This document shows positions 8,090 to 57,406 of a DNA stretch of 64,000 nucleotides, one piece after another; position 1 is the stretch's first letter; each line of letters starts with the position of its first letter. The notes under the pieces were generated by a model, which saw only the letters and a program-made list of their open reading frames with translations, did not search any database and had not been told where the DNA came from. The DNA lies in the NCBI GenBank assembly GCA_963712745.1, contig CAVQJC010000001.1, positions 192,001 through 256,000 on the forward strand. Reading direction: 5' to 3'. Made by a program: the position numbers and the translations under genes. The stretch is from an uncultured Chloroflexia bacterium. Lineage in GTDB: Bacteria; Chloroflexota; Limnocylindria; Limnocylindrales; CSP1-4.

Positions 8090-8116
8090 GTCAATTGCCT
8101 CAACCATTCCTATAAG

Positions 8117-8145
8117 AGAATAGTTGTGGCAATCATGGGTGTCAA
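8117..8145 (-). promoter_or_regulatory. sigma70-type promoter of the TA operon
   Basis: Minus strand TTGACA-17 nt-TATTCT. Confidence 0.75.
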
Positions 8146-8432
8146 GGCTCGGGACGGGCGTTCGACCGTATCGCACCTCTTGACACTTGCGAGATCGTTC
8201 GATCGCAAGTGGTCAGATCCAAACTGATAGCCAGACGGCTAGCAGCCGACGGGGTCGAGGAACTCTCCGAGCGTGCGGAAGAGACCGCGCAGCGGGCTCG
8301 TCTAGCTCCCCTATCTGTCAGGCTGAGGTGCGCATTCGGGTGGAGCTATCTGGCTAGGAACCGGCCCGCGGCCAGCAACAGCCTCTGGCGCCCCGGTACC
8401 CGGACCCACCCGGCGAGGCCGCCGTCGGGCCG

Positions 8433-8726: not shown

Positions 8727-9792
8727 TCAGCGGACCTCGCCGTCTTCGTCGATACCATTGATGCGGTCGCGATCGTCGTACGCCACGGCGATGAGGCGCG
8801 ACTCGAGCCTGCCCTCCGCGGGGAGGGTCACGGCGCTGCCGTTGTCGATCGCTTCTAGCAGCCCAGAGTCTGGCCAGCTGGTCCACGGCTCGAGCGCACA
8901 CGTGTACTCGCGGCCCCACCAGGGTGCATCCGGCTCTCCCCCCCACACCTGCCAGAACCAGAGGTACGGGAAGAGCGACGCATCCCACCGCAGTCCGAAG
9001 CCGACTCGCTTTCGGCCGCTGGTGATGCCGTACCAGCCCTCGTCGAAGCCACGAAGACAGACCCACTCGGAGCGACGGGCGTCCACGGACGGCACCACAC
9101 TGAGGTCGAGCGTGCCGCCATCGGCCAGCCGGGCATGGGGCCAGCGGAACTCATGGTCGAACTCAAGTGTGCTCGTCGGCAGCGGGCCTGATCGCCGCGT
9201 GCTCCCCTGGCATTCGGGCAAGTCGATGCGGCAGCTGTCGTCGAGGAAGGGTGCCCCGAACGCCGGGTGCTGCCCCCACATCAACTGGATGGGCACCATT
9301 GAGAGGTTGTTCACTGTCTCGTCGATGATCAGCGCAGACGATCCCGCACGAAGCGACAATCGCTTCTCCACCCGGAACGGCGTGAGCGGGGTCTCGACAG
9401 ACAGTGCGATCGTGACTAGCTCGGGCCTGTCGACCTCGACAACGGCATTCCAGCGGGAGGACCATAGCTCACCGTGGAATGGGGTACTCAGCACCGCGGT
9501 ACGTGACGCCCGGGCCGCCGTTGGGCAGGCATTCCTGCCAACCGCCCTCCCACTCGTCGAGGAAAGCGAAGACGCCCGAGGCTGACCGGCGACCGCCCGG
9601 CATCGGTGGCTGCAGTCCAGCAGAGCTTCGCCACAGGAAGTCCGTATCGGATGGCTTGTGCACGAAGGACGTGACATCGGAGCCTTTATCCGGCAGAAGC
9701 TCCACCCGGACCACCTCGTTCTCGAGTGAGAGGACGCGGCGGCCGGCTTCGACGTAGTCGCGAATCCGAGCGCCGAAGTGACGCGCAACCAT
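8727..9792 (-). CDS. aldose 1-epimerase-like (galactose mutarotase fold / DUF4432) protein, one frameshift
   Basis: N-part MVARHFG...GGWQECLPN joins PFHGELW...WGQHPAFG...ALEPWT through a C-run indel near 9480; TGATG overlap with the corrinoid gene. Confidence 0.8.
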
Positions 9793-10427
9793 CAGATGCT
9801 CATGCCCAAGGCACGTTGCACCACGTCGACGGCCCGAGCCGCGTCGGGCGCAAACCCGTCCGCACCGATCTGCCTCGCGTACTCCTCGGTGACCGGGGCG
9901 CCACCGACGACGATCTTGGTGTCGGCGATGTCGCTGGCACGCACCGCATCGACGACATCGGCCATGGCAGTCATGGTCGTCGTCAACAGGGCCGATAGAC
10001 CGATGACGGCGGCATTGTTCTCGCGGGCTGCGTCGACGAACCGTTGGGCCGGGACGTTCGTGCCCAGGTCGACGACTTCGAGGTTGGCGCCCTTCCACAT
10101 CATCGAGACAAGGCCCTTGCCGATGTCGTGCAGGTCGCCCTGGACCGTTCCGATTACGACTGTGTGCACCGGCTGGATGCCGGATTCGACGAGCGCCGGC
10201 TCGAGTTCGGCGAGCGCCTCTTTCATGGCTCGCGCCGCGATGAGCATGCCCGAGACGTAGACGTCTCCGGCCTGGAAGCGATCGCCGATTGCGGCCATGG
10301 ACGCGGTCATTGCGCCCAGGATCTCTGGGGCAGGGTAACCCTCCGCGAGTGCTTCACGGGTGAGCGACCGCGCGGCATTGGCGTCGCCGTCTTCGATGGC
10401 GGTGCCCAGTGAGGCGAGATCGGTCAT
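9792..10427 (-). CDS. corrinoid (B12-binding) methyltransferase protein, MtaC/MttC-like
   Basis: GDLHDIGK (DxHxxG), SALLTTTM, GGAPVT, cap-domain MLIAARAM. Confidence 0.92.
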   Translation of the reverse strand: MTDLASLGTAIEDGDANAARSLTREALAEGYPAPEILGAMTASMAAIGDRFQAGDVYVSGMLIAARAMKEALAELEPALVESGIQPVHTVVIGTVQGDLHDIGKGLVSMMWKGANLEVVDLGTNVPAQRFVDAARENNAAVIGLSALLTTTMTAMADVVDAVRASDIADTKIVVGGAPVTEEYARQIGADGFAPDAARAVDVVQRALGMSI

Positions 10428-11635
10428 GGCGTTGTGCTTCTCCCTTCGTATGCCTCGATCAGGTACTCGTATACCTCGCGCGGGCTGTCGGTGCGGCGAT
10501 CGGGGACCGGCTCATACCGTCCGTCCGCAAGCAGGCCGAGGATGGGCGAGTAGTCCTGCAGGAAAGCGACCCCTCGCAGCTCGATCGAGTCCGCCATGCG
10601 GTCGAAATACGATCGGTAGTCGAGCGGGGTGAAATCGCCGATGAAGAGCACCAGGCGGTCCTTGACACGCTCGTGCAACTCCACCAGTGCATCAAAGTCG
10701 TGCAGGGTGAACACGTTCAGGCCCTTCAGCCCGTCCATGGCTAGGAAGCTTTCGGCGTGATGGCTAGCGTCGCCGCAGTAGTGGACGATGCCGCCATCGA
10801 ATGCTTTGAGGATGCGGGAGTTGTAGGGCACCACGTACTCGCGGTACAGGTCGGCGTCGATGAGGACGGCGTCGTCGTCGGACAACCACACTCCGATGTT
10901 CTCGCCGGTGTACATCGACTGGTTGGCGATGCAATAGCCGGGAGGATCACCAATCACTTCTTTCTGGGCCTGGACCCAAGTGATAAGACCGTCGGTGATG
11001 ATGTCCATCAACTGGTGCATGGCCACCGGGTCATCCATCATGAGATAGATGAGTTTGTCGTAGCCCATCAACTGGTTGGCGGTCGTGAGCGGACCCTGGT
11101 GGTCGGTGAAGCCGACCGGCAGGTCGCTGTTCTCCTTCATGTAGCGCAGGTACTCGAGCACGGTGGGCATCAAGCCATCGCGCTCGGGATCTGGGACACG
11201 CAGTCGGCGGATGTCATCCGGACCCTGCACGGGGTAGTACGTGGGATCAGCAGCCGGATCCTGGCCGGGGTGGAACTCCACGCGACAACCGAAGGCGGAG
11301 GCCGCCACGACCGTGCCGAACCACGGCATCAGGTAGGGCACCCAGTCGTCGTCGACGTTGCGGAGATGGTTCAGGTACCAGCGCTCCTGGGCACTGACTG
11401 CCGCGGCGGGGTCGGTATAGAACGCATCCGGGATGGTCTCCGGCGCATGCCCGAATACCCAAGCCACGGCGTCGGTCACCGAAGCGACTGGCCGCTCGAG
11501 GGGCTCGAAGGCGAACACCGCGTCCATGCGTGGTTTGGTGCGAGCGAGCCGCTCCTCGTACCGGCGCCGCAGCTCGGCACGCTCTGCCGCTTCGAGCGGC
11601 ACCCCGTAGTCCTGCTGGTCGTTTGGATGGTTCAT
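10424..11635 (-). CDS. uroporphyrinogen decarboxylase-fold methyltransferase (putative substrate:corrinoid MT1)
   Basis: PWFGT...SAFGC, DHQGPLTTA, YVVPYN...HYCG; RBS agggaggga before ATG; coupled to the corrinoid gene. Confidence 0.75.
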   Translation of the reverse strand: MNHPNDQQDYGVPLEAAERAELRRRYEERLARTKPRMDAVFAFEPLERPVASVTDAVAWVFGHAPETIPDAFYTDPAAAVSAQERWYLNHLRNVDDDWVPYLMPWFGTVVAASAFGCRVEFHPGQDPAADPTYYPVQGPDDIRRLRVPDPERDGLMPTVLEYLRYMKENSDLPVGFTDHQGPLTTANQLMGYDKLIYLMMDDPVAMHQLMDIITDGLITWVQAQKEVIGDPPGYCIANQSMYTGENIGVWLSDDDAVLIDADLYREYVVPYNSRILKAFDGGIVHYCGDASHHAESFLAMDGLKGLNVFTLHDFDALVELHERVKDRLVLFIGDFTPLDYRSYFDRMADSIELRGVAFLQDYSPILGLLADGRYEPVPDRRTDSPREVYEYLIEAYEGRSTTP

Positions 11636-11705
11636 TTGCGTTTGGTCCCTCCCTGTCGACGGCCTCGTTGGTTCCGTACCTTGCCGCCGACCTCCATGCC
11701 ACATG

Positions 11706-12590
11706 TCATCCGGCGAACTCGTTCGTGGCCAGTCCTGTGACGCCGGGCCGACAGACGAAAGTGGCGCCCGCGAGCGGCTGGTCCCGAAGGGCATCGGCAT
11801 CCAAGGCATACGCTGCGGACGTGATGTATAGATCCCCGAGGTCAGGACCACCGAAGCACACGCTCGTCGGCTGCTTGACTGGGAGGCCGATGCTGCCCCG
11901 CAGAACACCGTCGGGCCCGTAGCAGCGCACTTCGCCTCCGTAGAAGAGCGCCACCCAGACATTGCCCTCTGCATCGACTGTCAATCCATCTGGCATTCCC
12001 TCGTCCTGCGCGAACGTGACGAGCCGGGATGGTTCACCGAGTGCACCACTCGTGGCGTCAAACGGGAAGGCATCGATCGCGTAGTTGCCCGAGTCGATGA
12101 AGTACATGACGTCGCCGCTGGGGCTCCAGCCCAAGCCGTTGGCGATCGTGAGGTCGGGGAGGACGCGAGTCACCGAGTGATCCACGTCCACGCGATACAG
12201 GGAGGCGGCGCCCGCCGCGAAGTCGAACGACATCGTCCCCGCCCAGAGCCGGCCCTGCGGGTCGCACTTGGCATCATTCATCCGGTTCCCGGGGTTGTCA
12301 CCTTCGATCGGGGCGAAGATCCGAACGGCGCCATCGGAGTCTCCAAGGAAGCCGATCCCGTCCCGCATGGCGACCACGAGCCCACCCTGAGCTCGCGGGA
12401 TCACAGCTCCCACTTCCTGACCAACGCTGATCGTGTCGAGCGATCCACTCGCCGGATCGAGGCGGTAGATCAGCCCCGGCGACACATCCACGAACAGCAA
12501 CGTGCCGGTCCGCGCATCCCACGATGGACCTTCGCCCACGTCGGCACCGACCTCAGCGACCGGGGCCACCTTCACATCGTCGAACACCAT
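11706..12590 (-). CDS. SMP-30/gluconolactonase family lactonase
   Basis: GEGPSWD, RMNDAKCDPQGRLW, IANGLGWSP, PDGLTVDAEG. Confidence 0.92.
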   Translation of the reverse strand: MVFDDVKVAPVAEVGADVGEGPSWDARTGTLLFVDVSPGLIYRLDPASGSLDTISVGQEVGAVIPRAQGGLVVAMRDGIGFLGDSDGAVRIFAPIEGDNPGNRMNDAKCDPQGRLWAGTMSFDFAAGAASLYRVDVDHSVTRVLPDLTIANGLGWSPSGDVMYFIDSGNYAIDAFPFDATSGALGEPSRLVTFAQDEGMPDGLTVDAEGNVWVALFYGGEVRCYGPDGVLRGSIGLPVKQPTSVCFGGPDLGDLYITSAAYALDADALRDQPLAGATFVCRPGVTGLATNEFAG

Positions 12591-12607
12591 CTCGCTTCTC
12601 TCCGGGA

Positions 12608-13357
12608 CTAGAAGTTGCCCAGCGAAGAGCCGCCGTCGACCAGGTACGTCGACCCGGTCACACTGGCTGCCGCCGGGGTACACAGGAAGAGCATCACTGC
12701 CGCCACGTCTTCGGGTTCCTGGAGCATCCCCAGGGGTACGGCCTTGGCGGCCCGGGCTGCGTACTCGGGATTGCGCTCAGCCTCGGCCCGTGCCAGTCCC
12801 GCATTCACGATGCCCGGCGCGACAAGGTTGCAGCGGATGCCGTCCTTCGCGTGTTCCAAGGCGATCGACCGCGCCAACATCTGAAGCGCGGCCTTCGAGC
12901 TCGAATAAGGAGCGATCTCCGGCCACGGTCGCTCGCCCACCCATGACCCGTTCAGCACGATGGAGCCCTTGGTCCTGTCGCGCAGGAACCGGCGGACAGC
13001 CGCCTGGGTGACGTGGAAGTTGCCGGTCAGGTTGACATCGATCTGACGCCGCCAAGAGTCGACCGTGACATCGACGAACGGGGCCGGCTCGACGATCCCG
13101 GCGTTGCCGATGACGAAGTCCAATCGGGCCGCTCCCTCGATCGCAGCATCGACTGCCGGGCGGTCGGTCACGTCAGCGGTCACGTAGCTGATCTGATTGG
13201 CTGGCAGGCCTTCGAGCAGTGCCCGCGCGTCATCGGCGCTCGACCGACCCACCGCGATGACATCTGCCCCCGCTTCGATGAATGCCCGGCAGACGGCGCG
13301 TCCGATGTCGCCGGCTGCACCAGTCACCAGCACGGTCTTGCCTCTCAAGTCACTCAC
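12608..13357 (-). CDS. SDR family oxidoreductase (sugar dehydrogenase-like)
   Basis: TGAAGDIG, NAGI, YSSSK, VDGG. Confidence 0.9.
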   Translation of the reverse strand: MSDLRGKTVLVTGAAGDIGRAVCRAFIEAGADVIAVGRSSADDARALLEGLPANQISYVTADVTDRPAVDAAIEGAARLDFVIGNAGIVEPAPFVDVTVDSWRRQIDVNLTGNFHVTQAAVRRFLRDRTKGSIVLNGSWVGERPWPEIAPYSSSKAALQMLARSIALEHAKDGIRCNLVAPGIVNAGLARAEAERNPEYAARAAKAVPLGMLQEPEDVAAVMLFLCTPAAASVTGSTYLVDGGSSLGNF

Positions 13358-14531
13358 GAGACGCCTCCATAGTCGACTCCGGCCGGAGGTCCACGACCTC
13401 CATGATCGAGTTTGCGCTGAACAGGGCCGGGTCGATAGGCTCGTACGGGTGCTGTGAGATCGCGGCGTGGTCGAGTTCGACGCCCAGGCCCGGCGCCTCG
13501 GAGACATCGACATGGCCGTCGGTCACGCGCGGCGCTCCGACCACGACCTCGTGTCGCCAAGGCACATCCCAGGGCTCAAGCATCTCCTGGATCTGGAAGT
13601 TGGGACTCACGACGTCAACGGCGAGGGTGGCAGCGGTGGCGACGGCGCCGTTGGGATTGTGCGGCGCGATCTGGACGAACCAGGTCGCGGCCATGGCCGC
13701 GATGTCGCGAGCCTCGGCGATGCCGCCCACGTGCAGGATGTCGGGTTGGAGGATGTGGACCGCACCGAGCTCGAGCAGTCGTCGCACCTCAAGTCGGGAG
13801 TAGCAGCGCTCGCCAGCCGCGATGGGCACTCGGCTGTGCTCGGCCACGTGCCGCATCGCCTCAGGATTGCCCGGCGGGACCGGCTCCTCGAAGAAGAAGG
13901 GGTCGAAAGGCTCGAGGCGGCCGGCGATGGTCCGCGCCGCGTGAACGCTGAAGCGGCCGTGTCCCTCGATCAGCAGCGCCACTTTGGGTCCCAGCTCCCG
14001 TCGGAGCGCGGCTACGACCTCGACCGCTGCATCGCTCTCCGCGACCGTCGGCGCCAGGTCCGCTCGCCCGAAGGGGTCGAACTTCAGCGCCCGATAACCC
14101 AGTTCCACGACCTCGCCGGCTCGTTCGACCCACTCATCGACCGTCTGGACCCCGAAGTACCAGCCGTTGGCATAGACCGGCATCGGGCCGTGAACACGCC
14201 CTCCGAGCAAGCGCCATACCGGCTGGCCGAGCTGCTTGCCCATGATGTCCCACAGGGCGATCTCGACGGCAGCCAAGCCCGTGCCGGCAACATACCCACC
14301 GACCCAGAACGGGTCGCGGGTGAGCAGGCGACGGACTCCGGAGATGGAGGTGGCGTCTGCTCCGACAAGCACGCGCTTGAGGTCCTCAAGGTGGCCCTGG
14401 ATCGTGAGTTCACGGCCTTCGAGCGTGGCCTCACCAAGGCCGATGATGCCGTTGTCGGTCTCGACTTCGACGAAGACCCAGTTTCGCCACCCGGCGTGGC
14501 ATGGGTAGCAGCGGATGTCAGCGATTCTCAT
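13350..14531 (-). CDS. mandelate racemase/enolase superfamily sugar-acid dehydratase (galactonate dehydratase-like)
   Basis: RNWVFVEVETD...GEATLEG, YANGW, KFDPFG, EGHGR, EEP, GER, PHNPNG. Confidence 0.88.
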   Translation of the reverse strand: MRIADIRCYPCHAGWRNWVFVEVETDNGIIGLGEATLEGRELTIQGHLEDLKRVLVGADATSISGVRRLLTRDPFWVGGYVAGTGLAAVEIALWDIMGKQLGQPVWRLLGGRVHGPMPVYANGWYFGVQTVDEWVERAGEVVELGYRALKFDPFGRADLAPTVAESDAAVEVVAALRRELGPKVALLIEGHGRFSVHAARTIAGRLEPFDPFFFEEPVPPGNPEAMRHVAEHSRVPIAAGERCYSRLEVRRLLELGAVHILQPDILHVGGIAEARDIAAMAATWFVQIAPHNPNGAVATAATLAVDVVSPNFQIQEMLEPWDVPWRHEVVVGAPRVTDGHVDVSEAPGLGVELDHAAISQHPYEPIDPALFSANSIMEVVDLRPESTMEASRE

Positions 14532-15606
14532 TCGCGCCTCCGGGTGGGGGTGCGTCATCAGCGGCGACACCGGCTACCGACTGGCGGAACATCCGCCTCT
14601 TTCGAACTTGGTCCAGCGCGGCAGCAAGGATGACGACAGCGCCGACGAAGAGGTTCTGGAGCGTGGGATCGACCCTTAGCAGGATGAGTCCTGTGGTCAG
14701 GACGCTCAGCAGGATGGCTCCCATGACCGTGCCCCGGATGGTCCCGATGGAGCCGCCGATGCTGGTGCCGCCGATGACGACGGCTGCGATCACCTGAAGC
14801 TCGAAGCCTGCCCCGAACGAGGGAGACCCCGAGCTGAGCCGGGAGGCCATCAGCACGCCGGCGAAGGCGGCGAGGCCGCCCCCGAGCATGTATGTGGCGG
14901 TCGAGACCCTGCGCACGTTGATTCCGAAACGGCGAGATCCCTCACGGTTGCCGCCGACAGCACGGATGGTCCAGCCGATCTTCGTCTTCTCGAGCAGGAT
15001 GTCCATCAGTATCGCCACGATCGCAGCGATGACAATCAGGAGCGGGATGCCAAGGATCTCGCCTTGGCCGATGTCCGTGAATTCATCGGGTAAGGGTCCG
15101 ATCGGATTGCCGCCCGAAAGGGCGACGACGAGCGAGCGCACGGCGAACAACGTCCCAAGCGTGACGATGATGGGCGAGATGTCCAAGTAGTTCACGAGGG
15201 CGCCGTTGAGGAGGCCCACGACGATCCCGACCGAAATCCCGAAGAGGAACACAGCTGGGACGATCCAGCCGGCGTCGGCCGCCCACGCCGCGCTGACCGC
15301 CCCCGCAGCGAAGACCGACCCGATCGAGAGGTCGAGACCGCCACCAACCATGACCACGGTTGAGCCTGTTCCTACGATGATGAGGAAGACAGCGTTGCGG
15401 AGGATGTTTGTCCAGGTCTGCTGGTCGAGAAAGCGCTCGTTCTGTGTCGCGCCGAGCACGACGAAGAGCACGATGACCACGATCAGGCCGCTGGCCGTGC
15501 TACCGAGGATGCGGCGCCAGGGGGACTGCGAGACGGAGGCGAGGTCGACCTCGGCAACGTCCGTGGCTCCGCCCACTGCGTCGTTGGTCACGGCACCACC
15601 GTTCAT
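14518..15606 (-). CDS. sugar ABC transporter permease (RbsC-like)
   Basis: GGLDLSIGS, IVTLGT, AVGGNREG, ELQVIAAVVIGGTS. Confidence 0.92.
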   Translation of the reverse strand: MNGGAVTNDAVGGATDVAEVDLASVSQSPWRRILGSTASGLIVVIVLFVVLGATQNERFLDQQTWTNILRNAVFLIIVGTGSTVVMVGGGLDLSIGSVFAAGAVSAAWAADAGWIVPAVFLFGISVGIVVGLLNGALVNYLDISPIIVTLGTLFAVRSLVVALSGGNPIGPLPDEFTDIGQGEILGIPLLIVIAAIVAILMDILLEKTKIGWTIRAVGGNREGSRRFGINVRRVSTATYMLGGGLAAFAGVLMASRLSSGSPSFGAGFELQVIAAVVIGGTSIGGSIGTIRGTVMGAILLSVLTTGLILLRVDPTLQNLFVGAVVILAAALDQVRKRRMFRQSVAGVAADDAPPPGGANENR

Positions 15607-16424
15607 TCCGGGCTTCCGTCGTGCTCAGCCCCACCTGCATGGTCACCAGGGATGGCGCCGGTGATGAGCCCCACAAGCTCTTCGGGCGTCGTGCGCGCAA
15701 CATCTCTGATGCCCTGTACCCGCCCCAGACGCATGACTTGGACGCGGTCGGCGACATCGAACACGAACGAAACGTCGTGGCTGATAAGGACCACAGCCTT
15801 GCCCTGCGACCGCAGCTGGCCCACGATCTCTCCCACCTGACGAGTCTCTCTTACACCCAGAGCTGCAGTCGGCTCGTCCATCATCACGATAGGGTTGTCA
15901 TCCCTGATGGCCCGCGCGATGGCGACGCCCTGGCGCTGGCCTCCGGAAAGCTCACCCACGGGCACGCGCACGGAAGGCAAGCGGACCTTCAGGCTTTGCA
16001 CGGTCCTGGCGGACTCCTCGATCATCCTCCGTCGGTCGGCGAAGAAGCGCCACCGACTCAGTTGGGCGCCGAGGAACATGTTCGCCGCCACGTCGAGCGT
16101 CTCGATGAGCGCCAGGTCCTGGAAGACCACGGAGACTCCCATCGCCCGAGCCAGGTGAGGGTCGCTGCCGGGCAAGACCTTGCCGCGGATCCGGACCTCA
16201 CCCCGGTCGAGCGCGTAGACGCCCGAGATGACCTTGACCATCGTCGACTTGCCGGCTCCGTTGTCCCCGACGACCGCCAGGACCTCACCGGGCCAGGCGC
16301 TCATCGAGACGTCACGAAGCGCGACGACGTGACCGAAGGACTTCCAGGCCCCCGCCAGCTCGAGTGCTGGCGGGGCGTCCTGGCGATCGGCCGGCTGAGT
16401 CGCCGGGTGTGACTGGACTGACAC
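15603..16424 (-). CDS. sugar ABC transporter ATP-binding protein (single NBD)
   Basis: GDNGAGKST, LSGGQRQ, MDEPTAAL, ISH; start approximate. Confidence 0.9.
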   Translation of the reverse strand: MSVQSHPATQPADRQDAPPALELAGAWKSFGHVVALRDVSMSAWPGEVLAVVGDNGAGKSTMVKVISGVYALDRGEVRIRGKVLPGSDPHLARAMGVSVVFQDLALIETLDVAANMFLGAQLSRWRFFADRRRMIEESARTVQSLKVRLPSVRVPVGELSGGQRQGVAIARAIRDDNPIVMMDEPTAALGVRETRQVGEIVGQLRSQGKAVVLISHDVSFVFDVADRVQVMRLGRVQGIRDVARTTPEELVGLITGAIPGDHAGGAEHDGSPE

Positions 16425-16435
16425 GTCGGGAGCTC

Positions 16436-17419: not shown

Positions 17420-17470
17420 TGGTTCCCAGACCTCCCCGTTCTGCTCCGATGCACCGAGTATTCTCGGCGT

Positions 17471-17585
17471 GACATATGATGTCGTATCTCATGATGCTCT
17501 ACCGTGTCAATCCCTCCTGATGGAGCGCCGCGGACTTGCCGCTCCCAGTGCGAACTCGAGTGCGTTGCCAGCACATGTATGATGT
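17471..17585. promoter_or_regulatory. divergent promoter region with GntR/FadR-type operators
   Basis: ACATATGATGT (17472), CATGATG and ACATGTATGATGT (~17573); TTGACA on minus at 17505-17510; TATGAT 6 nt before an in-frame GTG at 17590. Confidence 0.5.
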
Positions 17586-17589
17586 CCCG

Positions 17590-18360
17590 GTGAACGTCCG
17601 CGAGAGACCCGGCGGCCCTCGACCACGAACCACCGACCAGCGCCTGATGGCAGATGCCGGCGGGTCGCGCACCGAGATACTCATAAGCCAGCTCATCGAC
17701 CGGATCATCAGCGGTGTCTACGCTCCCGGCGACACGATCCCCACCGAAGCGCAGCTGGGAGATGCGTTCGGGGTCAGCCGCACGGTCGTGCGAGAGGCAA
17801 TCAAGGTGCTGGCCGAGAAGCAGCTCGTGCGCGTCGACCGTGGGCGCGGGACCGTCGTGCGACCCCGCCGTGAATGGCGGATGCTGGATGCCGCCAACCT
17901 CTCGGCCCAGATCCGCCACGGCGACCGAGAGGTGGTCATCCGTGAGTTGATTTTGATGCGCAAGGGCATCGAGCCGGAGCTGGCAGCGATCGCCGCCGCA
18001 TCAGCGACACCGGAAGCGGTCGCATCGATCGGTGCGCGCGTCGATGCTCTCGCGCGTGCAGTCGACGACGAGCCGGCGTATCACATCGCTGATGGCCAGT
18101 TTCACGAGGCGATCGCCGAGACGGCTGGTGTCTCCATCGCCGTCGAGTTCCTTCAAGTGATGCGCGAGCCCCTCGACCTCGCTCGGCAGCTCACGGACCG
18201 AATCCCGGACGCCATCCTCAGCGCTCATCGGCATCACCTCGACGTGTTCACAGCCATCGCTCAGCGAGACCCAGATGGGGCTCGAAGCGCGATGCGACGC
18301 CATCTCGAGTGGGCGGAGGAGCGGCTCGGACTCGCATTCGACCCTAAGCGCGCGGGATGA
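17590..18360 (+). CDS. GntR/FadR family transcriptional regulator
   Basis: PTEAQLGDAFGVSRTVVREA wHTH; FCD domain (ADGQFHEAI...HHLDVF...AMRRHL); start 17590 or 17647. Confidence 0.9.
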   Translation: MNVRERPGGPRPRTTDQRLMADAGGSRTEILISQLIDRIISGVYAPGDTIPTEAQLGDAFGVSRTVVREAIKVLAEKQLVRVDRGRGTVVRPRREWRMLDAANLSAQIRHGDREVVIRELILMRKGIEPELAAIAAASATPEAVASIGARVDALARAVDDEPAYHIADGQFHEAIAETAGVSIAVEFLQVMREPLDLARQLTDRIPDAILSAHRHHLDVFTAIAQRDPDGARSAMRRHLEWAEERLGLAFDPKRAG

Positions 18361-19019
18361 GAGACGCCAAGGCTCTCGAGCTGGTCGAAACCCTCCGGCG
18401 TGTCGGATACAGCGCCGTCGTTTCTGACTGTTGCGATCAAGTCGGACTGCGCGACCAGACGATGTCGGCGGGAATCACCCCCGTGTCGGGTGGTCCGGGT
18501 GTCTTGGTCGGCTTTGCCCGGCCCGTGCTGAGCGTCGCCGTGGACGGGATTCCGGACGAGCCCTATCGCGCAGAGATCGACTTCATCGACTCGCTTGGCC
18601 CGGACGACGTGGTGGCCGCAACGGTCGAGGCTCCGGGGGCGTTCTGGGGAGAGCTCTTCTCAACCGCTGCCAAGGCTCGTGGCGCGGCCGGTGTCGTAGT
18701 CGATGGTCTGGTGCGAGATCAGACACGCATCAGGCAACTGGGGTTCCCCGTCTATGCACGTGGCGCCCGGCCGACCGATAGCCTCGGCCGCATCTCCATC
18801 GGCGCATGCGATACCGCCACCCTCATCGGCGGGATCAGTGTGGGCCCGGGGGACCTTGTGGTGGCCGACGTCGACGGCGTGACGGTGGTGCCCGTGGATG
18901 CGATCGAGGAGGTCGCAACACGCGCGATTGAGAAAGCGACCACTGAGAACCACGCTCGCGAGATGCTGGAGGGCGGTGCGTTGCTGCGCGATGCGTGGGA
19001 CCGGTTCCGGGTGTTGTGA
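18357..19019 (+). CDS. RraA family / HMG-CHA aldolase-like protein
   Basis: WGELFSTAA, DGLVRD, PGDLVVADVDGV. Confidence 0.85.
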   Translation: MRDAKALELVETLRRVGYSAVVSDCCDQVGLRDQTMSAGITPVSGGPGVLVGFARPVLSVAVDGIPDEPYRAEIDFIDSLGPDDVVAATVEAPGAFWGELFSTAAKARGAAGVVVDGLVRDQTRIRQLGFPVYARGARPTDSLGRISIGACDTATLIGGISVGPGDLVVADVDGVTVVPVDAIEEVATRAIEKATTENHAREMLEGGALLRDAWDRFRVL

Positions 19020-19897
19020 CGGGCCTCGCCGGGATCTACGCCCCGATCTGCACGCCGTTCCTTCCCGACGAGGAGCTCGATCTCAGGGGCCTGCGCGCGA
19101 ACCTCGAGCGCTACGCGGATACGGGGGTCCATGGTCTGCTCGCGCTGGGCAGCAACGGCGAGAACCGAAGCCTGGACGAGGCCGAGCGCCTGAAGGTGCT
19201 CGACGCGGTGGTGTGTCACAAGGGCCGCGACCAGGCCGTGATGGCCGGCGCTACCTACGACGCACAGCGTTCCGCGGAGCGGTTCCTGGCCGCTGCTGCC
19301 GACCTCGGCGCCGACTACGGACTGGTCCTCTCACCCGGCTACCACCGCAAGCAGATGACCGAGGAGGTCCTGTACCGCTTCTTCTCGACCCTCGCGGACG
19401 TGTCGGCGATTCCGCTGATCGTATACAACGCCCCCGGCTTCAACGGCATCACGCTCACGCCCGAGTTGGTCGGGCGGCTGTCGGAACACCCCAACATCGC
19501 TGGGCTCAAGGACAGCGCCGCGGCCGGGTTCGAGCACTTCCTGCCCCTCCAGCGTCCGGACTTCGCCGTGCTCGCGGGCTCCGCCGACTTCCTCTTCGCG
19601 GCCATGATCGGCGGCGCACCCGGCGGCACGGTCTCGCTGGCGAACTCGTTCCCAGCACTCGCGTTGGCGTTGTACGAGCTGGGACGGTCGCGCAACTCGG
19701 AGGACGGAACCGTCCTGCAGGAGCGGGTGAGCCGCATCAACCGCGCCATCTCCGGGGCCTTTGGCGTAGCCGGGGTCAAGGCGGCCATGGATCTGGCCGG
19801 ACTCGTGGGCGGCATCCCTCGACGACCACTGCTCCCCTTGACCGAGAACGAGCGCCAGCAGTTGCGTGCCACCCTGGAGGCGGAAGGGCTCATCTGA
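19016..19897 (+). CDS. DHDPS/NAL family aldolase (2-keto-3-deoxy acid aldolase-like)
   Basis: GSNGE, YNAP, GLKDS Schiff-base lysine; GTGA overlap. Confidence 0.88.
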   Translation: MTGLAGIYAPICTPFLPDEELDLRGLRANLERYADTGVHGLLALGSNGENRSLDEAERLKVLDAVVCHKGRDQAVMAGATYDAQRSAERFLAAAADLGADYGLVLSPGYHRKQMTEEVLYRFFSTLADVSAIPLIVYNAPGFNGITLTPELVGRLSEHPNIAGLKDSAAAGFEHFLPLQRPDFAVLAGSADFLFAAMIGGAPGGTVSLANSFPALALALYELGRSRNSEDGTVLQERVSRINRAISGAFGVAGVKAAMDLAGLVGGIPRRPLLPLTENERQQLRATLEAEGLI

Positions 19898-21264
19898 TGG
19901 GCACCGACATCCTGGCACTCGACGTGGGAACGAGTGGGCTTAAGGCAGGGGTCTATACCTCGGATCTGCGGCTCGAGCGCGCGGTAACCCACGGGTACGA
20001 GCCGGACATCAGTGCCGGCGGCCAGGCGGACATATGGCCCGAACGGTGGTGGTCGGCCATCACCGCTGCCTGCGCCGAGCTTGGGTCCTCCCTTGCGGAC
20101 GTCAGCGTCATCAGCCTGGGCGTGACCACTCCTGGCCTGACGCCGATGGCAGCGGATGGCACCGCCCTGGGTCCGGCCATCCTGATGATGGACGGACGCT
20201 CGCGGAACCAGGCGGCGGCCATTCGCAAAGCCGTGGGCGAGGAACGCTTCCTGGCACAGGCCTGCAACTTGCCGGTGTCAGGCGGATCGTCGCTCGCGAG
20301 CATCCTCTGGATCCGCGACGAGCGTCCCGAGGTCTGGGCCAAGGCCGCGATCTTCGGACACACCAACACGTACGTGGTAAAGCGGCTGACGGGGCAGTGG
20401 GCCATCGACCCGTCCACGACATCGATCACCGGCCTGTACGCAACCGCGCGCAACGATCTGACCTGGATTGCCGAGGTGCTCGAGGCGGCCCATCTCGACC
20501 CTGCGAGACTGCCGCCTCTGATGCACTCGTTCGACCCGGTCGGGCGGATCTTACCAGCGGTCGCCGATGCGCTCGGATTGCCTCGCGAGGCGGTGGTGTT
20601 GTGCGGTGCGAATGACGCAGCCCTCGCAGCATGGTCAGGCGGGCTGTCCGAGCCCGGTGATGCCAACATCATCAGCGGTACCACCGACATCGCCAATGTC
20701 TGTACCGACGCGCCCGTGGCCTCGCCAGACTTCAACGTCCGCTGTCATGTCGTCCCCGGGCGCTGGCTCACGTTCTTCGTGCTCAACACCGGTGGCGTGG
20801 CCTATGACTGGTTCCGGCGCACCTTCTGCCGCGAGTTTGCGGTTGACGACTTCTACGCCGAGTACCTACCCGGCGTGTTAGAGGGCTTCCTCGGCGATCC
20901 CGCGGTCGATGGGCGAGAGGCCGAGCTGCCGACCTACCTGCCCTTCCTCGCCGGCAGCCGCTACTCGACCGAGCCACTTACGGCGTCATTCTCCGGTATC
21001 GGGCTCCAGACCACGCGAGAAGACCTGCTCCTGGCCATCGTGTGCGGCAACCTGCAGTACCTCGGCCAGCACCTCGAGCAGGTCGCCGCGCACGTACGCG
21101 TCAACCCGACGGTCGGCATCTCCGGTGGCGCAGCCCGGATCAGGGGCATGCTCGAAGCACGTCGGCGCTGGACGGGTGACTTCGAGTACGTCTTCCAGGA
21201 CCAATCGTCGCTGCTCGGGGCGGCCATGCTCGGGCAGGTGTATCAGCGTGGTGGCGCGGTATGA
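19897..21264 (+). CDS. FGGY family carbohydrate kinase
   Basis: LDVGTSGLK, DGRS, GANDAA, SGTTD, SGGAA; TGATG overlap. Confidence 0.88.
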   Translation: MGTDILALDVGTSGLKAGVYTSDLRLERAVTHGYEPDISAGGQADIWPERWWSAITAACAELGSSLADVSVISLGVTTPGLTPMAADGTALGPAILMMDGRSRNQAAAIRKAVGEERFLAQACNLPVSGGSSLASILWIRDERPEVWAKAAIFGHTNTYVVKRLTGQWAIDPSTTSITGLYATARNDLTWIAEVLEAAHLDPARLPPLMHSFDPVGRILPAVADALGLPREAVVLCGANDAALAAWSGGLSEPGDANIISGTTDIANVCTDAPVASPDFNVRCHVVPGRWLTFFVLNTGGVAYDWFRRTFCREFAVDDFYAEYLPGVLEGFLGDPAVDGREAELPTYLPFLAGSRYSTEPLTASFSGIGLQTTREDLLLAIVCGNLQYLGQHLEQVAAHVRVNPTVGISGGAARIRGMLEARRRWTGDFEYVFQDQSSLLGAAMLGQVYQRGGAV

Positions 21265-21280
21265 GGCAGGCAAGGAGCGT

Positions 21281-22135
21281 GTGATAGCGATGGCAGCGAC
21301 CAGAACCATGGTGGCCACGGCCATGCAGGGCGGCTACGCCGTGCCGGCGATCAACGTCGTCGACCAGCTGTCCATGGAAGCGGTGCTGGCGGCGGCCCAG
21401 GAGCTGCGCAGCCCGGTCATCGTGCAGACCTCGGTCAAGACCGTGCGCTCCATCGGCCTCGAGGTGCTGAAGGCGATGTGGGACACGACGGCCGCCTCGG
21501 TCGACGTGCCCGTGGCGCTGCACCTGGACCACTGCCCCGACCGAGGGGTCATCAGCGACTGCCTCGCCGCAGGCTGGGACTCGGTGCTGTTCGATGCACA
21601 CGAGCTCTCGGTCGAGGAGAACGAGCGCCAGTGCATCGAGGTCGTGGCCGAGGCGCGGCGCCACGGTGCCGACGTGGAGGGCGAGATCGAGGGCATCCGC
21701 GGCGTGGAGGACGGCATCGGTTCCGACGTTGCCAGCGTCATCCGGTCGCTCGAGGTCGCCGTCGGATTCATCGAGCGCACGGGCGTGGATATCTTCGCCC
21801 CGGCCATCGGCAACGCCCACGGCATGTACGCCGCACAGCCGACGCTCGACCACCAGCGCATCAGCGACCTCGTCGCGGCCACCGGCATCCCCATGGCGCT
21901 GCACGGCGGCACCGGCCTCAGCCCCGAGCAGTTCCGCGACCTGATCGCCCGCGGCTGCGCCAAGGTCAACGTCTCGACCGCCCTGAAGATGGCCTACATC
22001 GAGGCCAGCCGGGCCTACCTCGATGAGCACCCCGACGCGGCCGACCCGCCCAGGCTCTTCGCCCACGTGCGCGAGGCAGTGATGGAGATGACGCGGGCAC
22101 ACATCCGCATGTTCGGCTCGGAGGGGAGGGCATGA
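21281..22135 (+). CDS. class II fructose/tagatose-bisphosphate aldolase
   Basis: LHLDH, VEGEI, AIGNAHG, LHGGTG, KVNVST; aaggag RBS. Confidence 0.9.
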   Translation: MIAMAATRTMVATAMQGGYAVPAINVVDQLSMEAVLAAAQELRSPVIVQTSVKTVRSIGLEVLKAMWDTTAASVDVPVALHLDHCPDRGVISDCLAAGWDSVLFDAHELSVEENERQCIEVVAEARRHGADVEGEIEGIRGVEDGIGSDVASVIRSLEVAVGFIERTGVDIFAPAIGNAHGMYAAQPTLDHQRISDLVAATGIPMALHGGTGLSPEQFRDLIARGCAKVNVSTALKMAYIEASRAYLDEHPDAADPPRLFAHVREAVMEMTRAHIRMFGSEGRA

Positions 22136-23019
22136 GCGCGCTCCTCTTCGACTGCGACGGCGTCCTCGCCGACACCGAGCGCCACGGGCACCTGCCCGCC
22201 TTCAACCGGGCCTTCGCCGAGTTCGGGTTGCCCGTCCGCTGGTCGGAGGAGGAATACGGCAGGGCCCTGCATATCGGTGGCGGCAAGGAGCGCCTGGCCT
22301 CCCTGCTCACCCCCGAGCTCGTGGCCGAGGCTGGTCTGCCGACCGACCCGGAGGGCCAGGCTGTCGAGGTCGCGAGGTGGCACCGGCGCAAGACCGAGCT
22401 GTATGTCGAGCTGGTCCGCGCGGGCCGGCTGCCACCGCGCCCTGGCATCGCCCGCATCGTGGACGAAGCGCGCGTCGCAGGATGGCAGCTCGCGGTCTGC
22501 TCGACCTCGGCCGAGCCCTCGGTCCGCGCCATCCTGGAGACGGCGGTCGGGACCGACGCGGCGGCGGACTTCCTCGTGCTGGCCGGGGACATCGTGGCGG
22601 CCAAGAAGCCGGCGCCGGACATCTACGAGCTCGCGCTCGAGCGGCTCGGCATCGAGCCTGAGGAGGCGGTCGTCGTCGAGGACTCGCGCAACGGGCTGCT
22701 CGCAGCCCACGCCGCTGGGCTGGCCACCGTCGTCACTGTCAACGGCTACACCCGCGACCAGGACTTCGGCGAGGCCGCCCTCGTGGTCTCGTCACTGGGC
22801 GACCCTGGGGCTGAGCCTATCGAGGTGCTGGCCGATCGGGCAGGAGTGGGGGCAGGAGCCTACCTGACGCTGCCGGACCTCCAGGCATGCCGTCCGTGCC
22901 AGCCGAAGCAGCGGGCCCGAAACCTCATCCCAGAAGTACATCCGGTCCATGCAGCGAAGGGAGCATCACATGAACTCGATCGAACGTGTCGCAGCGGCGA
23001 TCGAACTGCGGAACCCTGA
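22132..23019 (+). CDS. HAD-IA hydrolase, CbbY-like sugar phosphatase
   Basis: FDCDGVLADTERHGH, GGGKER, KKPAPDIY, EDSRNG. Confidence 0.88.
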   Translation: MSALLFDCDGVLADTERHGHLPAFNRAFAEFGLPVRWSEEEYGRALHIGGGKERLASLLTPELVAEAGLPTDPEGQAVEVARWHRRKTELYVELVRAGRLPPRPGIARIVDEARVAGWQLAVCSTSAEPSVRAILETAVGTDAAADFLVLAGDIVAAKKPAPDIYELALERLGIEPEEAVVVEDSRNGLLAAHAAGLATVVTVNGYTRDQDFGEAALVVSSLGDPGAEPIEVLADRAGVGAGAYLTLPDLQACRPCQPKQRARNLIPEVHPVHAAKGASHELDRTCRSGDRTAEP

Positions 23020-24002
23020 CCGGGTTCCCGTAGATCTACACAACTTCCTGCCTGCTGCGCAGGCATTTGGACGCCCGTTCACGGAGACGTTCAGGGACGG
23101 GGAGTTGCTGGCCCAGGCCATGCTGGACGCGTGGCGCGAGTTCGGCCACGACATGATCCTCCTCGAGAACGGGACCGGCTGCAATGCCGAGGCCTGCGGG
23201 GCCGAGGTCAGCTATCGCGATGATGCCTCGCCCGTGGCCGAGAAGCCGCTCATCTCATCGCTCGACCAAGTCGCAGATCTGGTCGTGCCGGACCCTGAGA
23301 CGACCTTCCCACAGAATGAGATCCTCAAGGCCACGAGCGATCCTGTCCAAGGAAATCGGGGACCAAGCCTGGATCGTGGCGCGAGCGGACCAGGGACCGT
23401 TCGACCTTGCCGCCCAGCTCTTCGGGATGGAGGACCTGATGATGGCCATGGCCATGGGCGAGACCGAGGGCGTGAAGACGCTGCTCTCCTACTGCCGTGA
23501 GGTCACCACTCGCTACGCCTACGCATTGCTGGACGCAGGCGGTCGCTCGACGTCGATCGGAGAGCCGGTCTCCGGTCCCGGCCTCATCTCGCCGAAGGAC
23601 TACCAGCGCTTCGCGATGCCGCAGCAGCGCCAGCTCGTGGAGGACGTCACAGCCCACGGTGGCATCGTCGCTAACCACATCTGCGGCGACACGATCCCGA
23701 TCTTCGACGACTTCATGGCCACAGGTGCCCAGATCCTGGAGATCGACCACGTCACCGACAAGCAGGCGGCCAAGGACCTCGCTCGTGGCCGCACCTGTCT
23801 GCTCGGTACGCTCGACACCAACACCATCACCATGGGCACGCCCGCCGAGGTCGAGGACGAAGTGCGTGAAGCGATCGCCATCCTGGCACCCGATAGCGGC
23901 TTCATCATCGGTCCGGGCTGCGCGCTCGGGCCGGAGACCCCGGCGGACAACATCCATGCGCTGATTGAGGCTGCGCGCAAGTACGGGACCTATCCAGTCT
24001 GA
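22970..24002 (+). CDS. URO-D/MtaA-family methyltransferase with Zn motif (putative MT2), one frameshift
   Basis: MNSIERV...PDRVPV...EACGA joins ILSKEIG...QGPFDLA through an indel near 23338; HIC...GPGC (H-x-C-x78-C). Confidence 0.8.
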
Positions 24003-24171
24003 CCCGGTCACGGCGAGAGGACTGCTCACTCGGCAAGTCAGTCGGCAGGGCCAGAGCGATGGAACTCACGCCTAGGATGCGAAGACTGCTCCCGTCAATC
24101 AACCTCGACCGGCATCAGCTCGGCGGACCCATCCAGGTTCGGACAATCTGCAAGGAGGAGGGACACGATCC

Positions 24172-24804
24172 ATGGCTGACCTGACCGCACTGACCGCGGC
24201 CGTCGAAGCGGGCAACCGGGCCGAGGCGGTGAGCCTCACCCAGGCCGCCATCGACGCGGGTACCCCACCCCAGGAGATCCTCGACGCCATGACGACGGCG
24301 ATGACCGAGGTCGGCCGCAAGTTCGCCTGCAACGAGGGCGTGTACGTGCCCGAGATGCTCATCAGCGCCCACGCCATGAAGGAAGCCAGTGCGCTGCTCG
24401 AGCCGCTGCTGGCCGCCTCGGGTATCAAGCCCGAGCACACCGCCGTCATCGGCACGGTGCAGGGCGACCTCCACGACATCGGCAAGAACCTCGTGGGCAT
24501 GATGCTGAAAGGCGCCAACTTCGAGATCGTGGACCTGGGCACCAACGTCAGCCCCGAGGCCTTCGCCGAGGCGGCGGTGGAGCACGGCGCCACCATCGTC
24601 GGCATCAGCGCCCTGCTGACGACCACGATGGTGGGCATGAAGGCCGCCGTGGAGGCCATCCGGGCGGCCGACCCCAAGGCCAAGATCCTCGTCGGCGGGG
24701 CGCCCGTGACCGACGAGTTCGCCGCCGAGATCGGCGCCGACGGCTTCGCCAAGGACGCCGCCACCGCGGCCAACGTGGCCCAGGCACTGCTGGCGGCGCG
24801 GTAG
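24172..24804 (+). CDS. corrinoid (B12-binding) methyltransferase protein, second copy
   Basis: YVPEML, GDLHDIGKN, SALLTTTM, GGAPVT; strong RBS. Confidence 0.92.
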   Translation: MADLTALTAAVEAGNRAEAVSLTQAAIDAGTPPQEILDAMTTAMTEVGRKFACNEGVYVPEMLISAHAMKEASALLEPLLAASGIKPEHTAVIGTVQGDLHDIGKNLVGMMLKGANFEIVDLGTNVSPEAFAEAAVEHGATIVGISALLTTTMVGMKAAVEAIRAADPKAKILVGGAPVTDEFAAEIGADGFAKDAATAANVAQALLAAR

Positions 24805-34176: not shown

Positions 34177-34238
34177 CTTGTTGTATGTCCTCTTTGCGAC
34201 GAGTAGGTCTCGTCTGTCGTAGCCACAGGTTAACTGTT

Positions 34239-34266
34239 TGTCCAAAGTATGTCAAAACTATGTCTA
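34239..34266. promoter_or_regulatory. three 11-bp-phased TGTCNA boxes (OmpR/PhoB-type site)
   Basis: tgtcca-aagta-tgtcaa-aacta-tgtcta in an AT-rich patch ~65 bp upstream of paralog 1. Confidence 0.45.
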
Positions 34267-35171: not shown

Positions 35172-35353
35172 TGGTATCCCCCTTCTGCGATCACTCGCGG
35201 CCCCGTTCGGGGTCGTATGCCGTGGATGGTGCGCTCGTGATCCCCCCATTGCAAGTGACCTCCGGCCTGGCGACAGAGGGGACTACGCGGCGGAGAAGCA
35301 TCGGTGAAGGCCCACGGAAGTGAGCATGAAGACGGAGCCGCCATCCTCGGGCC

Positions 35354-37516: not shown

Positions 37517-39371
<1,855 letters not shown>

Positions 39372-39382
<11 letters not shown>

Positions 39383-57403: not shown

Positions 57404-57406
57404 CTA

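Follow-up and report, generated by a model that had tools for sequence, protein, structure and literature searches.

The DNA analyzed here, a 64,000-nucleotide stretch of contig CAVQJC010000001.1 (positions 192,001 to 256,000) from an uncultured Chloroflexia bacterium, is called the window below; its G+C content is 67%. At window positions 8727 to 24804 it carries a cluster of two divergent operons that combine a sugar importer and sugar-acid catabolic genes with two proteins of the uroporphyrinogen decarboxylase (URO-D) fold, U1 and U2, and two corrinoid proteins, CP1 and CP2. Glycans of plants, algae, fungi, and bacteria contain methylated sugars, and the methyl group blocks ordinary sugar catabolism. 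We propose, with a probability of about 0.52, that this regulon imports a methylated carbohydrate, demethylates it through the corrinoid without O2, and degrades the remaining skeleton.

Families were assigned using Pfam, and every gene family that a first-pass annotation of the sequence had proposed for this region was present, at or near the position suggested for it. The genes are listed below, the left arm first.

16436–17419, minus strand: Peripla_BP_4 periplasmic sugar-type binding protein (Pfam, 5e-39), first gene of the left operon
Longest frame 15603–16529, start probably near 16370, minus strand: single-domain ABC ATPase (ABC_tran, 2e-27)
14518–15606, minus strand: CUT2-type sugar permease, BPD_transp_2 (Pfam, 3e-42)
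13350–14570, start maybe at about 14531, minus strand: MR_MLE acid-sugar dehydratase (MR_MLE_N and MR_MLE_C)
Longest frame 12608–13513, probably to about 13357, minus strand: SDR oxidoreductase (adh_short_C2, 1e-51)
Longest frame 11706–12683, probably to about 12610, minus strand: SMP-30/gluconolactonase-family lactonase (SGL, 8.5e-82)
10424–11635, minus strand: U1, divergent URO-D/MtaA-fold protein of 403 amino acids from the ATG at 11635
9792–10427, minus strand: CP1, corrinoid protein (B12-binding_2, PF02607, and B12-binding, PF02310)
8727–9788, minus strand: DUF4432, aldose-epimerase-like protein (PF14486, 1.5e-9, over the cut-off), last gene of the left arm
Longest frame 17536–18360, likely ATG at 17648, plus strand: GntR and FCD regulator (PF00392, 1.7e-19; PF07729, 6e-24)
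18357–19019, plus strand: RraA-like protein (PF03737, 2.7e-26)
18995–19897, plus strand: DHDPS-family enzyme (PF00701, 3e-42)
19900–21264, start approximate, plus strand: FGGY sugar kinase (FGGY_N and FGGY_C)
21290–22135, plus strand: class II ketose-bisphosphate aldolase (PF01116, 6e-79)
22132–23019, plus strand: HAD-IA phosphatase or mutase (Pfam Hydrolase/HAD_2)
22970–24002, plus strand: U2, MtaA-like URO-D-fold protein, split in the assembly
24172–24804, plus strand: CP2, second corrinoid protein (B12-binding_2 and B12-binding)
25073–25879, plus strand: rve transposase (Pfam rve and HTH_32), a marker of the right-arm boundary outside the pathway

The arrangement of one regulator between two divergent operons was borne out, with the GntR/FCD gene in the center, the left arm on the minus strand, and the right arm on the plus strand. 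The regulator has the layout of the FadR subfamily, an N-terminal GntR winged helix-turn-helix domain followed by a C-terminal FCD domain. According to the open reading frame coordinates, stop and start codons overlap by 4 bases at the permease/ATPase, U1/CP1, regulator/RraA, and aldolase/HAD junctions; because its gene overlaps the RraA-like gene in this way, the regulator is the first gene of the right operon and not a separate unit. What had been described as a mutarotase-like protein corresponds to the DUF4432 gene, which has a weaker relative in one of the related loci considered next (L033).

We scanned one genome per prokaryote species for relatives of U1 and obtained 39 loci, all from metagenome-assembled genomes (MAGs), with U1 relatives that are 45 to 89% identical to U1. 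As titled, the loci come mostly from Chloroflexota and also from Acidobacteriota, one Acidimicrobiia, and one Pirellulales. Genes were called in them using a simple open reading frame and GC-position heuristic, so some starts and a few genes are wrong (e.g., the corrinoid gene of L007), and the following counts are lower bounds, many contigs being short.

Intact U2 orthologue (54 to 80% identity) within about 2.2 kb of U1: 17 of 39 loci
U2 directly upstream of U1: 15 of 39 loci
Corrinoid protein near U1: 14 of 39 loci
CUT2 permease near U1: 18 of 39 loci
U3, a third URO-D paralogue, near U1: 21 of 39 loci
CobW/COG0523 metallochaperone near U1: 8 of 39 loci

At least one carbohydrate-type neighbor of U1 was found in 34 of the 39 loci; under this heading we counted sugar importers, LacI and other sugar-sensing regulators, glycoside hydrolases (GH3, GH42, GH31, GH78, and GH43), GalK, ROK, FGGY, and MR_MLE together with SDR. 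The sugar-type regulators common near U1 are LacI proteins and PBP-AraC hybrid kinases, and tandem-double Peripla_BP_4 proteins of about 677 amino acids, whose single frame holds two complete domains, stand beside the U2-U1 module in 12 loci (e.g., L015:5483-7516). The usual order in Chloroflexota is LacI, corrinoid protein, U2, U1, CobW, and U3, adjoining an ATPase, permease, and binding protein. In Acidobacteriota, U1 follows GH42, a RhaT-like gene, and U3, or else GH3 or GH78, and in the single Pirellulales locus U1 comes after an MFS sugar transporter. The first-pass annotation had suggested looking for a conserved neighborhood that joins B12-binding, URO-D, and sugar ABC genes; across the 39 loci the outcome was positive, and the association of U2, U1, a corrinoid protein, and a sugar importer is found across phyla.

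In the closest relative that we fetched, L001, the left arm, the regulator, and the RraA gene are syntenic, and the proteins are 75 to 94% identical gene by gene (U1, 89%; binding protein, 87%; dehydratase, 94%; DUF4432, 84%). All 12 same-genus genomes match some part of the right arm, and the block from the DHDPS-family gene through the FGGY and aldolase genes to the HAD gene is present in 8 of them; moreover, two (G005 and G010) have U2 beside the RraA-to-HAD block in another gene order. Because U2 and U1 adjoin and share a single corrinoid protein in the relatives, the two corrinoid/URO-D pairs of the cluster can be understood as one module that has been split. Judged by gene order, the window is thus a rearranged form of a conserved module, with U1 and CP1 in one arm and U2 and CP2 in the other.

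The same connection recurs within the host MAG (4.2 Mb, 84.6% complete), in which hidden Markov models of U1, U2, and U3 detected 18 URO-D-family genes alongside 7 to 8 corrinoid proteins. Nine of the 18 URO-D genes lie within 8 kb of a CUT2 permease, compared with 11.8% of the genome that lies that close (binomial, 8e-5; the cases are not independent, as two pairs share a transporter). One paralogue belongs to a cluster with a class II aldolase-SDR fusion, which we take to be RhaEW, as well as DeoR, FGGY, and a sugar importer, and this cluster is read as rhamnose-type; another paralogue is beside a galactokinase, and several are beside ROK genes. Furthermore, a corrinoid gene on contig C4 (L056:6728-7354) lies among two xylose-isomerase-like TIM barrels, two GFO/IDH/MocA genes, LacI, and IolB/KduI, an inositol-like setting that could point to methylated cyclitols.

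These associations bear on whether the substrate is a carbohydrate at all. The systems of this architecture that are characterized in the available portions of PMC8630106, PMC13222342, and PMC3727330 all act on methoxylated aromatics, methanol, methylamines, chloromethane, or the like, and if that held here, the sugar genes would be mere neighbors. With 47 CUT2 permease frames and 18 URO-D genes in the genome, some chance adjacency is expected, and a transposase flanks the right arm. However, overlapping stop and start codons make U1 and CP1 part of the sugar operon and link U2 with the HAD gene, the only transporter of the regulon is the sugar-type importer, and the proximity of half of the paralogues to CUT2 permeases is well above the genomic expectation. 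Together with the carbohydrate neighbors in 34 loci, which span phyla and comprise varied importers, regulators, and glycoside hydrolases, this makes a noncarbohydrate substrate improbable, and we continue with a sugar or a sugar-like compound as the imported substrate.

U1 and U3 are distant from any solved protein. The Pfam URO-D match of U1 is confined to profile positions 72 to 196 of 346; its best solved match by sequence is MtaA (4ay7), with an E value of 1e-4, and with profiles the best solved matches reach 2e-6 for U1 and 5e-8 for U3. For U1, the MtaA-type model NF004889 gave 57.2 bits against a cut-off of 244, and the HemE model TIGR01464 gave no match at 1e-10. More than 120 sequence clusters, at 53 to 94% identity to U1, belong to its large and well-conserved family and are unnamed or called uroporphyrinogen decarboxylase, and a search of the ESM Atlas returned unnamed URO-D clusters only. 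From these comparisons, U1 and U3 are assigned to new URO-D subfamilies, that of U1 being very divergent. The AlphaFold model of U1 (pLDDT, 89.4; pTM, 0.90) matches the folds of URO-D and MtaA with query-normalized TM scores of 0.55 to 0.63. An invariant H285-Y-C287-G...H292-H293 segment is present in U1, and its HYCG aligns with the HICG of U2; U1 thus retains H285-x-C287 of the H-x-C...C pattern and is without the later cysteine, while U3 carries H-S-D-G at the H-x-C position.

CP1 and CP2 are 58% identical and share the DxHxxG motif, and GDLHDIGK, SALLTT, and GG are invariant in 12 corrinoid protein sequences. Both consist of a helical cap and a Rossmann B12 domain, the layout of methyltransferase corrinoid proteins, and both match TIGR02370, under its cut-off. 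When U1 and CP1 were modeled as a complex, the ipSAE was 0.61 (three runs, 0.61, 0.56, and 0.64), and the best of three controls reached 0.00. In calibration, 116 of 157 solved complexes reached the mark of the tool, compared with 2 of 215 mismatched pairs; these counts hold only roughly here, as custom alignments were used for the U1-CP1 run. The runs share at least 56% of contacts, the pLDDT of the partner is at least 78, and the predicted interface sets invariant U1 residues 192 to 200, 257 to 263, and H292 against CP1 cap residues 56 to 66. The model supports binding of CP1 by U1, a candidate substrate:corrinoid methyltransferase for a methyl sugar.

The complex prediction also weighs on a different assignment, in which U1, and with it U3, would carry out a sugar-acid decarboxylation or isomerization, leaving U2 with CP1 and CP2 as the methyl-transfer pair. 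URO-D itself is a cofactor-free decarboxylase, the U1 fold matches URO-D and MtaA equally well, the third cysteine of the MtaA pattern is missing, and the U1 genes of Acidobacteriota have glycoside hydrolases as neighbors and lack a nearby corrinoid gene. Nonetheless, the model docks the two invariant U1 segments (192 to 200 and 257 to 263) on CP1, the U1 and CP1 genes overlap by 4 bases, and in 15 loci U1 immediately follows U2. In addition, all five Acidobacteriota genomes tested that have no corrinoid gene near U1 encode small corrinoid proteins and the activator RACo elsewhere, often side by side, as against RACo matches in 1 of 14 control genomes. We regard a U1 that is not a corrinoid methyltransferase as decidedly unlikely and retain methyltransferase as its candidate assignment.

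U2 is closer to MtaA, aligning with 4ay7 at 3e-19 over the C-terminal two-thirds with HICG and PGC in register; H240, C242, and C321 are invariant in 12 orthologues, and we presume that these H-x-C...C residues correspond to the zinc ligands of MtaA. The gene is split in the assembly, and on NCBIfam we scored its C-terminal piece only, which stayed under the cut-off of each model: 51.9 against 302.95 for the HemE equivalog TIGR01464, 123.9 against 400 for NF040654, and 113.2 against 235.4 for TIGR01463.

The second URO-D-fold gene is where the first-pass annotation had placed it, in two pieces: the frames 22949–23500 and 23184–24002 match URO-D profile positions 3 to 116 and 128 to 346, respectively (Pfam), one extra base at about 23338 breaking the gene at a site that is neither a homopolymer nor a slippery run. 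U2 orthologues are intact, with no break at the junction. Three contigs from public runs of three studies cover the site, each 151 to 270 bases long and otherwise identical to the window, and all three are without one base at 23338; one of the runs may be the source sample of the window itself. Because these contigs do not have the extra base, we read the frameshift as an assembly error, and U2 is probably intact in nature. A real pseudogene and a programmed frameshift were considered and ruled out by the same contigs together with the nature of the site. Elsewhere in the assembly (contig C20:551681-552477), a corrinoid gene also lies in two adjacent frames, and there may be other single-base indel errors. 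A contig from an RNA library is identical to window positions 22852 to 23007; DNA is possible in such libraries, and we draw no conclusion on expression.

Outside the cluster, the host genome encodes an exit for methyl groups. Contig C11 carries the ACS/CODH beta subunit, both CdhD-type corrinoid iron-sulfur subunits, RACo, a CooC-like ATPase, two MeTr-like pterin-binding enzymes, two MTHFR genes, FolD, and FTHFS, and these Wood-Ljungdahl genes are directly followed by two URO-D genes and a corrinoid protein. From ACS/CODH and the gene set for methyl-tetrahydrofolate (methyl-THF), it follows that the host is an anaerobe capable of routing methyl-THF into the acetyl-CoA pathway. A second RACo-type activator, at about 318.2 to 319.9 kb of the same contig (L060:6239-7858), adjoins LacI, L-arabinose isomerase, and a Peripla_BP_4/BPD_transp_2 sugar importer. 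A search of the genome, which is 84.6% complete, turned up no MtrH; since the host is a bacterium without this sign of methanogenesis, coenzyme M is an unlikely methyl acceptor.

The remaining genes of the regulon could account for uptake and breakdown of the sugar skeleton. The nearest solved structures of the binding protein are CUT2-type sugar-binding proteins, at most at an E value of 8e-15, and the best NCBIfam models are RbsA/YtfR/AraG halves for the ATPase and GguB/AraH/MglC/RbsC for the permease, all under cut-off. For the dehydratase, the galactonate dehydratase model NF010624 gave 297.9 bits against a cut-off of 311, the best solved match was the putative D-galactonate dehydratase 3rr1 (4.5e-62), and galactarate dehydratase gave only 108.5 bits; it is a candidate enolase-superfamily, D-galactonate-dehydratase-like enzyme. 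The SDR, with 186 bits against a cut-off of 215 for glucose 1-dehydrogenase, is a candidate aldose 1-dehydrogenase. The RraA-like protein, whose NCBIfam matches are all under cut-off, is a candidate pyruvate-forming aldolase, and the DHDPS-family enzyme, which reaches no NCBIfam model (88.5 bits against 278 for KdgD), is a candidate 2-keto-3-deoxy-sugar-acid aldolase. XylB is the best model for the FGGY kinase (165 bits; cut-off, 380), the class II aldolase passes the subfamily model TIGR00167 (221.4 against 215.6), and the HAD enzyme exceeds the cut-off of TIGR01509. Dehydrogenase, lactonase, dehydratase, and 2-keto-3-deoxy-acid aldolase families, as assigned by Pfam, thus all occur in one regulon.

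SDR, lactonase, enolase-superfamily, and DHDPS families also make up the oxidative uronate route, and the H-x-C...C pattern serves thiol or thioether chemistry in MtaA and MtsA. Both points would suit the same chemistry applied to a methyl group on sulfur (e.g., in 5-methylthioribose), on nitrogen, or in an ester, as in methyl-esterified uronic acids. Each of these would offer a better leaving group than an alkoxide, U2 retains the whole H-x-C...C pattern in alignment with MtaA, the importer is of the ribose/arabinose/galactose type, and a preprint (PMC10418091), in the part available, places MtaA-like clusters of bacteria in methyl-sulfur or methyl-selenide metabolism. On the other hand, the dehydratase resembles galactonate dehydratase most and galactarate dehydratase far less, the DHDPS-family enzyme falls well below the KdgD cut-off, and the GH42, GH3, GH31, GH78, GalK, and RhaT neighbors elsewhere indicate neutral hexoses and deoxyhexoses. 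No methionine-salvage gene appeared in the Pfam scans of the cluster and the genes around it, although no search was aimed at such genes. A methyl group on S, on N, or in an ester is unlikely in our view, and an O-methyl sugar remains the preferred substrate.

A shared control region of 228 bp (17420 to 17647) extends from the binding-protein gene to the likely start of the regulator. The motif ACAT(N0-2)ATGATGTC occurs in it twice, at 17472–17483 and 17573–17586, with no further match in the 64-kb window and none in 100 shuffles, and both copies are kept in L001. The pair is a candidate operator of the GntR/FCD regulator. This setting speaks to the direction of the chemistry. With catechols, methyl transfer through corrinoids can run both ways in vitro (PMC7783988, in the excerpt available), and the cluster might accordingly methylate a sugar from methyl-THF, or its corrinoid proteins might serve as B12 sensors or stores. 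Yet the genes belong to a regulon for import and catabolism with a FadR-type repressor, the genes that adjoin them in other loci encode glycoside hydrolases and not glycosyltransferases or exporters, and CP1 and CP2 have the cap-plus-Rossmann layout with a match, under cut-off, to TIGR02370. We judge synthesis, sensing, or storage to be very improbable.

Under the demethylation model, the GntR/FCD repressor would control both operons from the shared 228-bp region, and the sugar would enter through the CUT2-type ABC importer. U1, as a zinc-type URO-D-fold enzyme acting on CP1, would move the sugar methyl to Co(I), giving methyl-Co(III) and free sugar; in the relatives, U3 would be a substrate-specific methyltransferase I (MT I) like U1. 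The methyl group would then leave via the MtaA-like U2, with CP2, or via either of the MeTr-like enzymes encoded elsewhere, with tetrahydrofolate (THF) as the likely acceptor feeding the Wood-Ljungdahl pathway, and oxidized cobalt would be repaired by a RACo-type activator encoded elsewhere. SDR would oxidize the freed sugar, the SMP-30 lactonase would open the lactone, the galactonate-dehydratase-like enzyme would dehydrate the acid, and the DHDPS- or RraA-type aldolase would split the product, after which the kinase, class II aldolase, and HAD enzyme would process a fragment or a related ketose. We infer all chemical steps, including the methylated-sugar substrate and the O-methyl linkage, as well as the order of demethylation and oxidation and the MT1 and MT2 roles of the URO-D proteins. 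Of the earlier claim of O2-free methyl-sugar demethylation, what stood is the conserved neighborhood and the genome setting, to which ACS/CODH, MeTr, MTHFR, and RACo belong; methyl removal itself falls among the steps just named.

The nearest precedent for demethylation with so poor a leaving group is MtaB, in which zinc activates methanol. By analogy, the H-x-C(-HH) site of U1 and its frequent CobW neighbor suggest that a metal could activate the oxygen of the ether. A galactose-type substrate is hinted at by the dehydratase, GH42, and galactokinase, and GH78, the RhaT-like genes, and the rhamnose-type cluster hint at a rhamnose-type one. A bolder extension, which we advance tentatively and at somewhat less than even odds, is that U1 and U3 found new families of O2-independent, cobalamin- and metal-dependent carbohydrate O-demethylases, which would cleave aliphatic sugar methyl ethers, perhaps those of cyclitols too, and hand the methyl to the corrinoid protein.

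Several observations weigh against the proposed pathway. Chemically, a sugar methyl ether is a much poorer leaving group than the known aryl ethers, amines, and halides. The zinc pattern of U2 is that of MtaA for a thiol acceptor and does not fit THF; MtoA, considered as a precedent for a URO-D-type, pterin-using MT2 and hence for U2 with THF, was ruled out, being MtrH-like in the accessible text of PMC8630106. Neither a THF-type MT2 (pterin-binding or MtrH) nor a RACo/RamA activator is encoded in the cluster or the window, and U2 is broken as assembled. U1 and U3 are far from solved proteins, so that their methyltransferase assignment comes from fold, context, and the predicted complex. The nearest solved structures of the binding protein gave no informative ligand match, and no dehydratase, kinase, or aldolase reached an NCBIfam equivalog cut-off, because of which the catabolic route is known at the family level only. 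Among the relatives, L001 has no U2 or CP2 within 10 kb, five of the 39 loci (L004 and L014, on short contigs, and L021, L023, and L032) have no sugar gene, and the counts overstate the number of independent events, since kin share neighborhoods.

Additional features were noted around the cluster and in the host. An HTH_17 (excisionase-like) gene lies to the left of the cluster at 7406–8176 and the rve transposase directly to the right of CP2; the cluster may be on or beside mobile DNA. Farther along the window are a primary sigma-70-like gene and dnaG (37517–41327), the usual macromolecular-synthesis pair, overlapping by 11 bases; three DUF4397 genes (33451–34245, 34473–35249, and 36482–37237) around an HTH_31 regulator; and a MarR regulator gene paired with one for an AcrB-like RND transporter (about 1,100 amino acids), the pair occurring twice in tandem (53622–61428). 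In the host genome, a URO-D paralogue on contig C1 at about 144 to 149 kb (L055:9261-14042) adjoins MR_MLE, a PFL-like glycyl radical enzyme, and a radical SAM activase. Contig C11 of this Wood-Ljungdahl organism also has P450 genes (L050:5006-6457 and L051:2088-2846) beside URO-D paralogues and a sugar importer; the latter P450 frame, a short one, may likewise be a broken call.

If the proposed pathway is true, it would explain the mineralization of methyl sugars in sediments and anoxic soils and would make carbohydrates a further source of C1 units in acetogenic or methyl-oxidizing metabolism. Anaerobic Chloroflexota could feed sugar methyls into the Wood-Ljungdahl pathway, which would parallel, for carbohydrates, growth on methoxylated aromatics. 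The same enzymes would serve Acidobacteriota and, as titled, one Planctomycetota and one actinobacterial lineage, next to their glycoside hydrolases. Corrinoid methyltransferase chemistry, which covers aryl ethers, amines, and halides, would come to include aliphatic ethers as well, and a role would be found for large unnamed URO-D-like families, now annotated as uroporphyrinogen decarboxylase or hypothetical protein.

The catabolic part of the regulon resembles the oxidative nonphosphorylative aldose routes (De Ley-Doudoroff-like galactose catabolism and its fucose/rhamnose variants) in its SDR, SMP-30 lactonase, MR_MLE, and DHDPS-type aldolase families. It differs from the textbook oxidative route in its additional FGGY kinase, class II aldolase, HAD, and RraA-like genes and in the corrinoid genes embedded in it.

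Characterized sugar O-demethylation is oxidative and P450-dependent and requires O2 (PMC6292453 and PMC10033563, in their available parts), and the statement to that effect in the first-pass annotation agrees with the former. The P450 demethylases of marine Bacteroidetes, which act on 6-O-methyl-D-galactose, share with the system here the net task of freeing a methyl sugar for catabolism (PMC6292453, PMC10033563). They need O2 and release formaldehyde, whereas the system here would spare O2 and keep the methyl on a cofactor, and they have no sequence or fold relationship to the proteins described here. The accessible part of PMC9788770 ascribes pinitol demethylation to pisatin demethylases of the P450 type in fungi; the bacteria of that study did not need it. 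In the open literature, searched by title and abstract with subscription journals and about 1.7 million PMC articles outside the scope, we found no corrinoid-dependent sugar demethylase.

Compared to MtaA, MtbA, and MtsA (4ay7; NF040654, TIGR01463), U2 shares HICG and PGC, and U1 and U3 share a fold or profile relationship; unlike those proteins, U1 and U2 stay under the model cut-offs, U1 is without the third cysteine, and the host is a bacterium. The CdmBCA chloromethane system of Acetobacterium dehalogenans (9rui) likewise pairs a URO-D-fold MT1 with a corrinoid protein (PMC13222342, available part); it shows a weak sequence match to U2 (1.7e-5) and none detectable to U1, its substrate is a halide, and it has no sugar context.

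Finally, we compared the cluster to known corrinoid O-demethylases: Odm/Vdm of Acetobacterium, Mtv of Moorella, the Desulfitobacterium systems, of which a corrinoid protein is described in the available part of PMC3727330, and MtoABCD of Methermicoccus, in which, according to the accessible text of PMC8630106, MtoB transfers a methyl group from aryl methyl ethers to MtoC and MtoA moves it on to a pterin. As in those systems, a small cap-plus-Rossmann corrinoid protein adjoins a TIM-barrel protein, here a candidate methyltransferase, and the host genome contains a RACo/RamA-type activator, a THF-type exit enzyme, and the Wood-Ljungdahl pathway. In contrast to them, the genes here lie among sugar import and sugar-acid catabolism genes with no aromatic-compound genes, and an aliphatic ether would be a chemically harder substrate than their aryl ethers. 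Relative to the known corrinoid systems, the new elements are this carbohydrate setting, the U1 and U3 subfamilies, and the location of the methyltransferase II (MT II) and activator outside the cluster.

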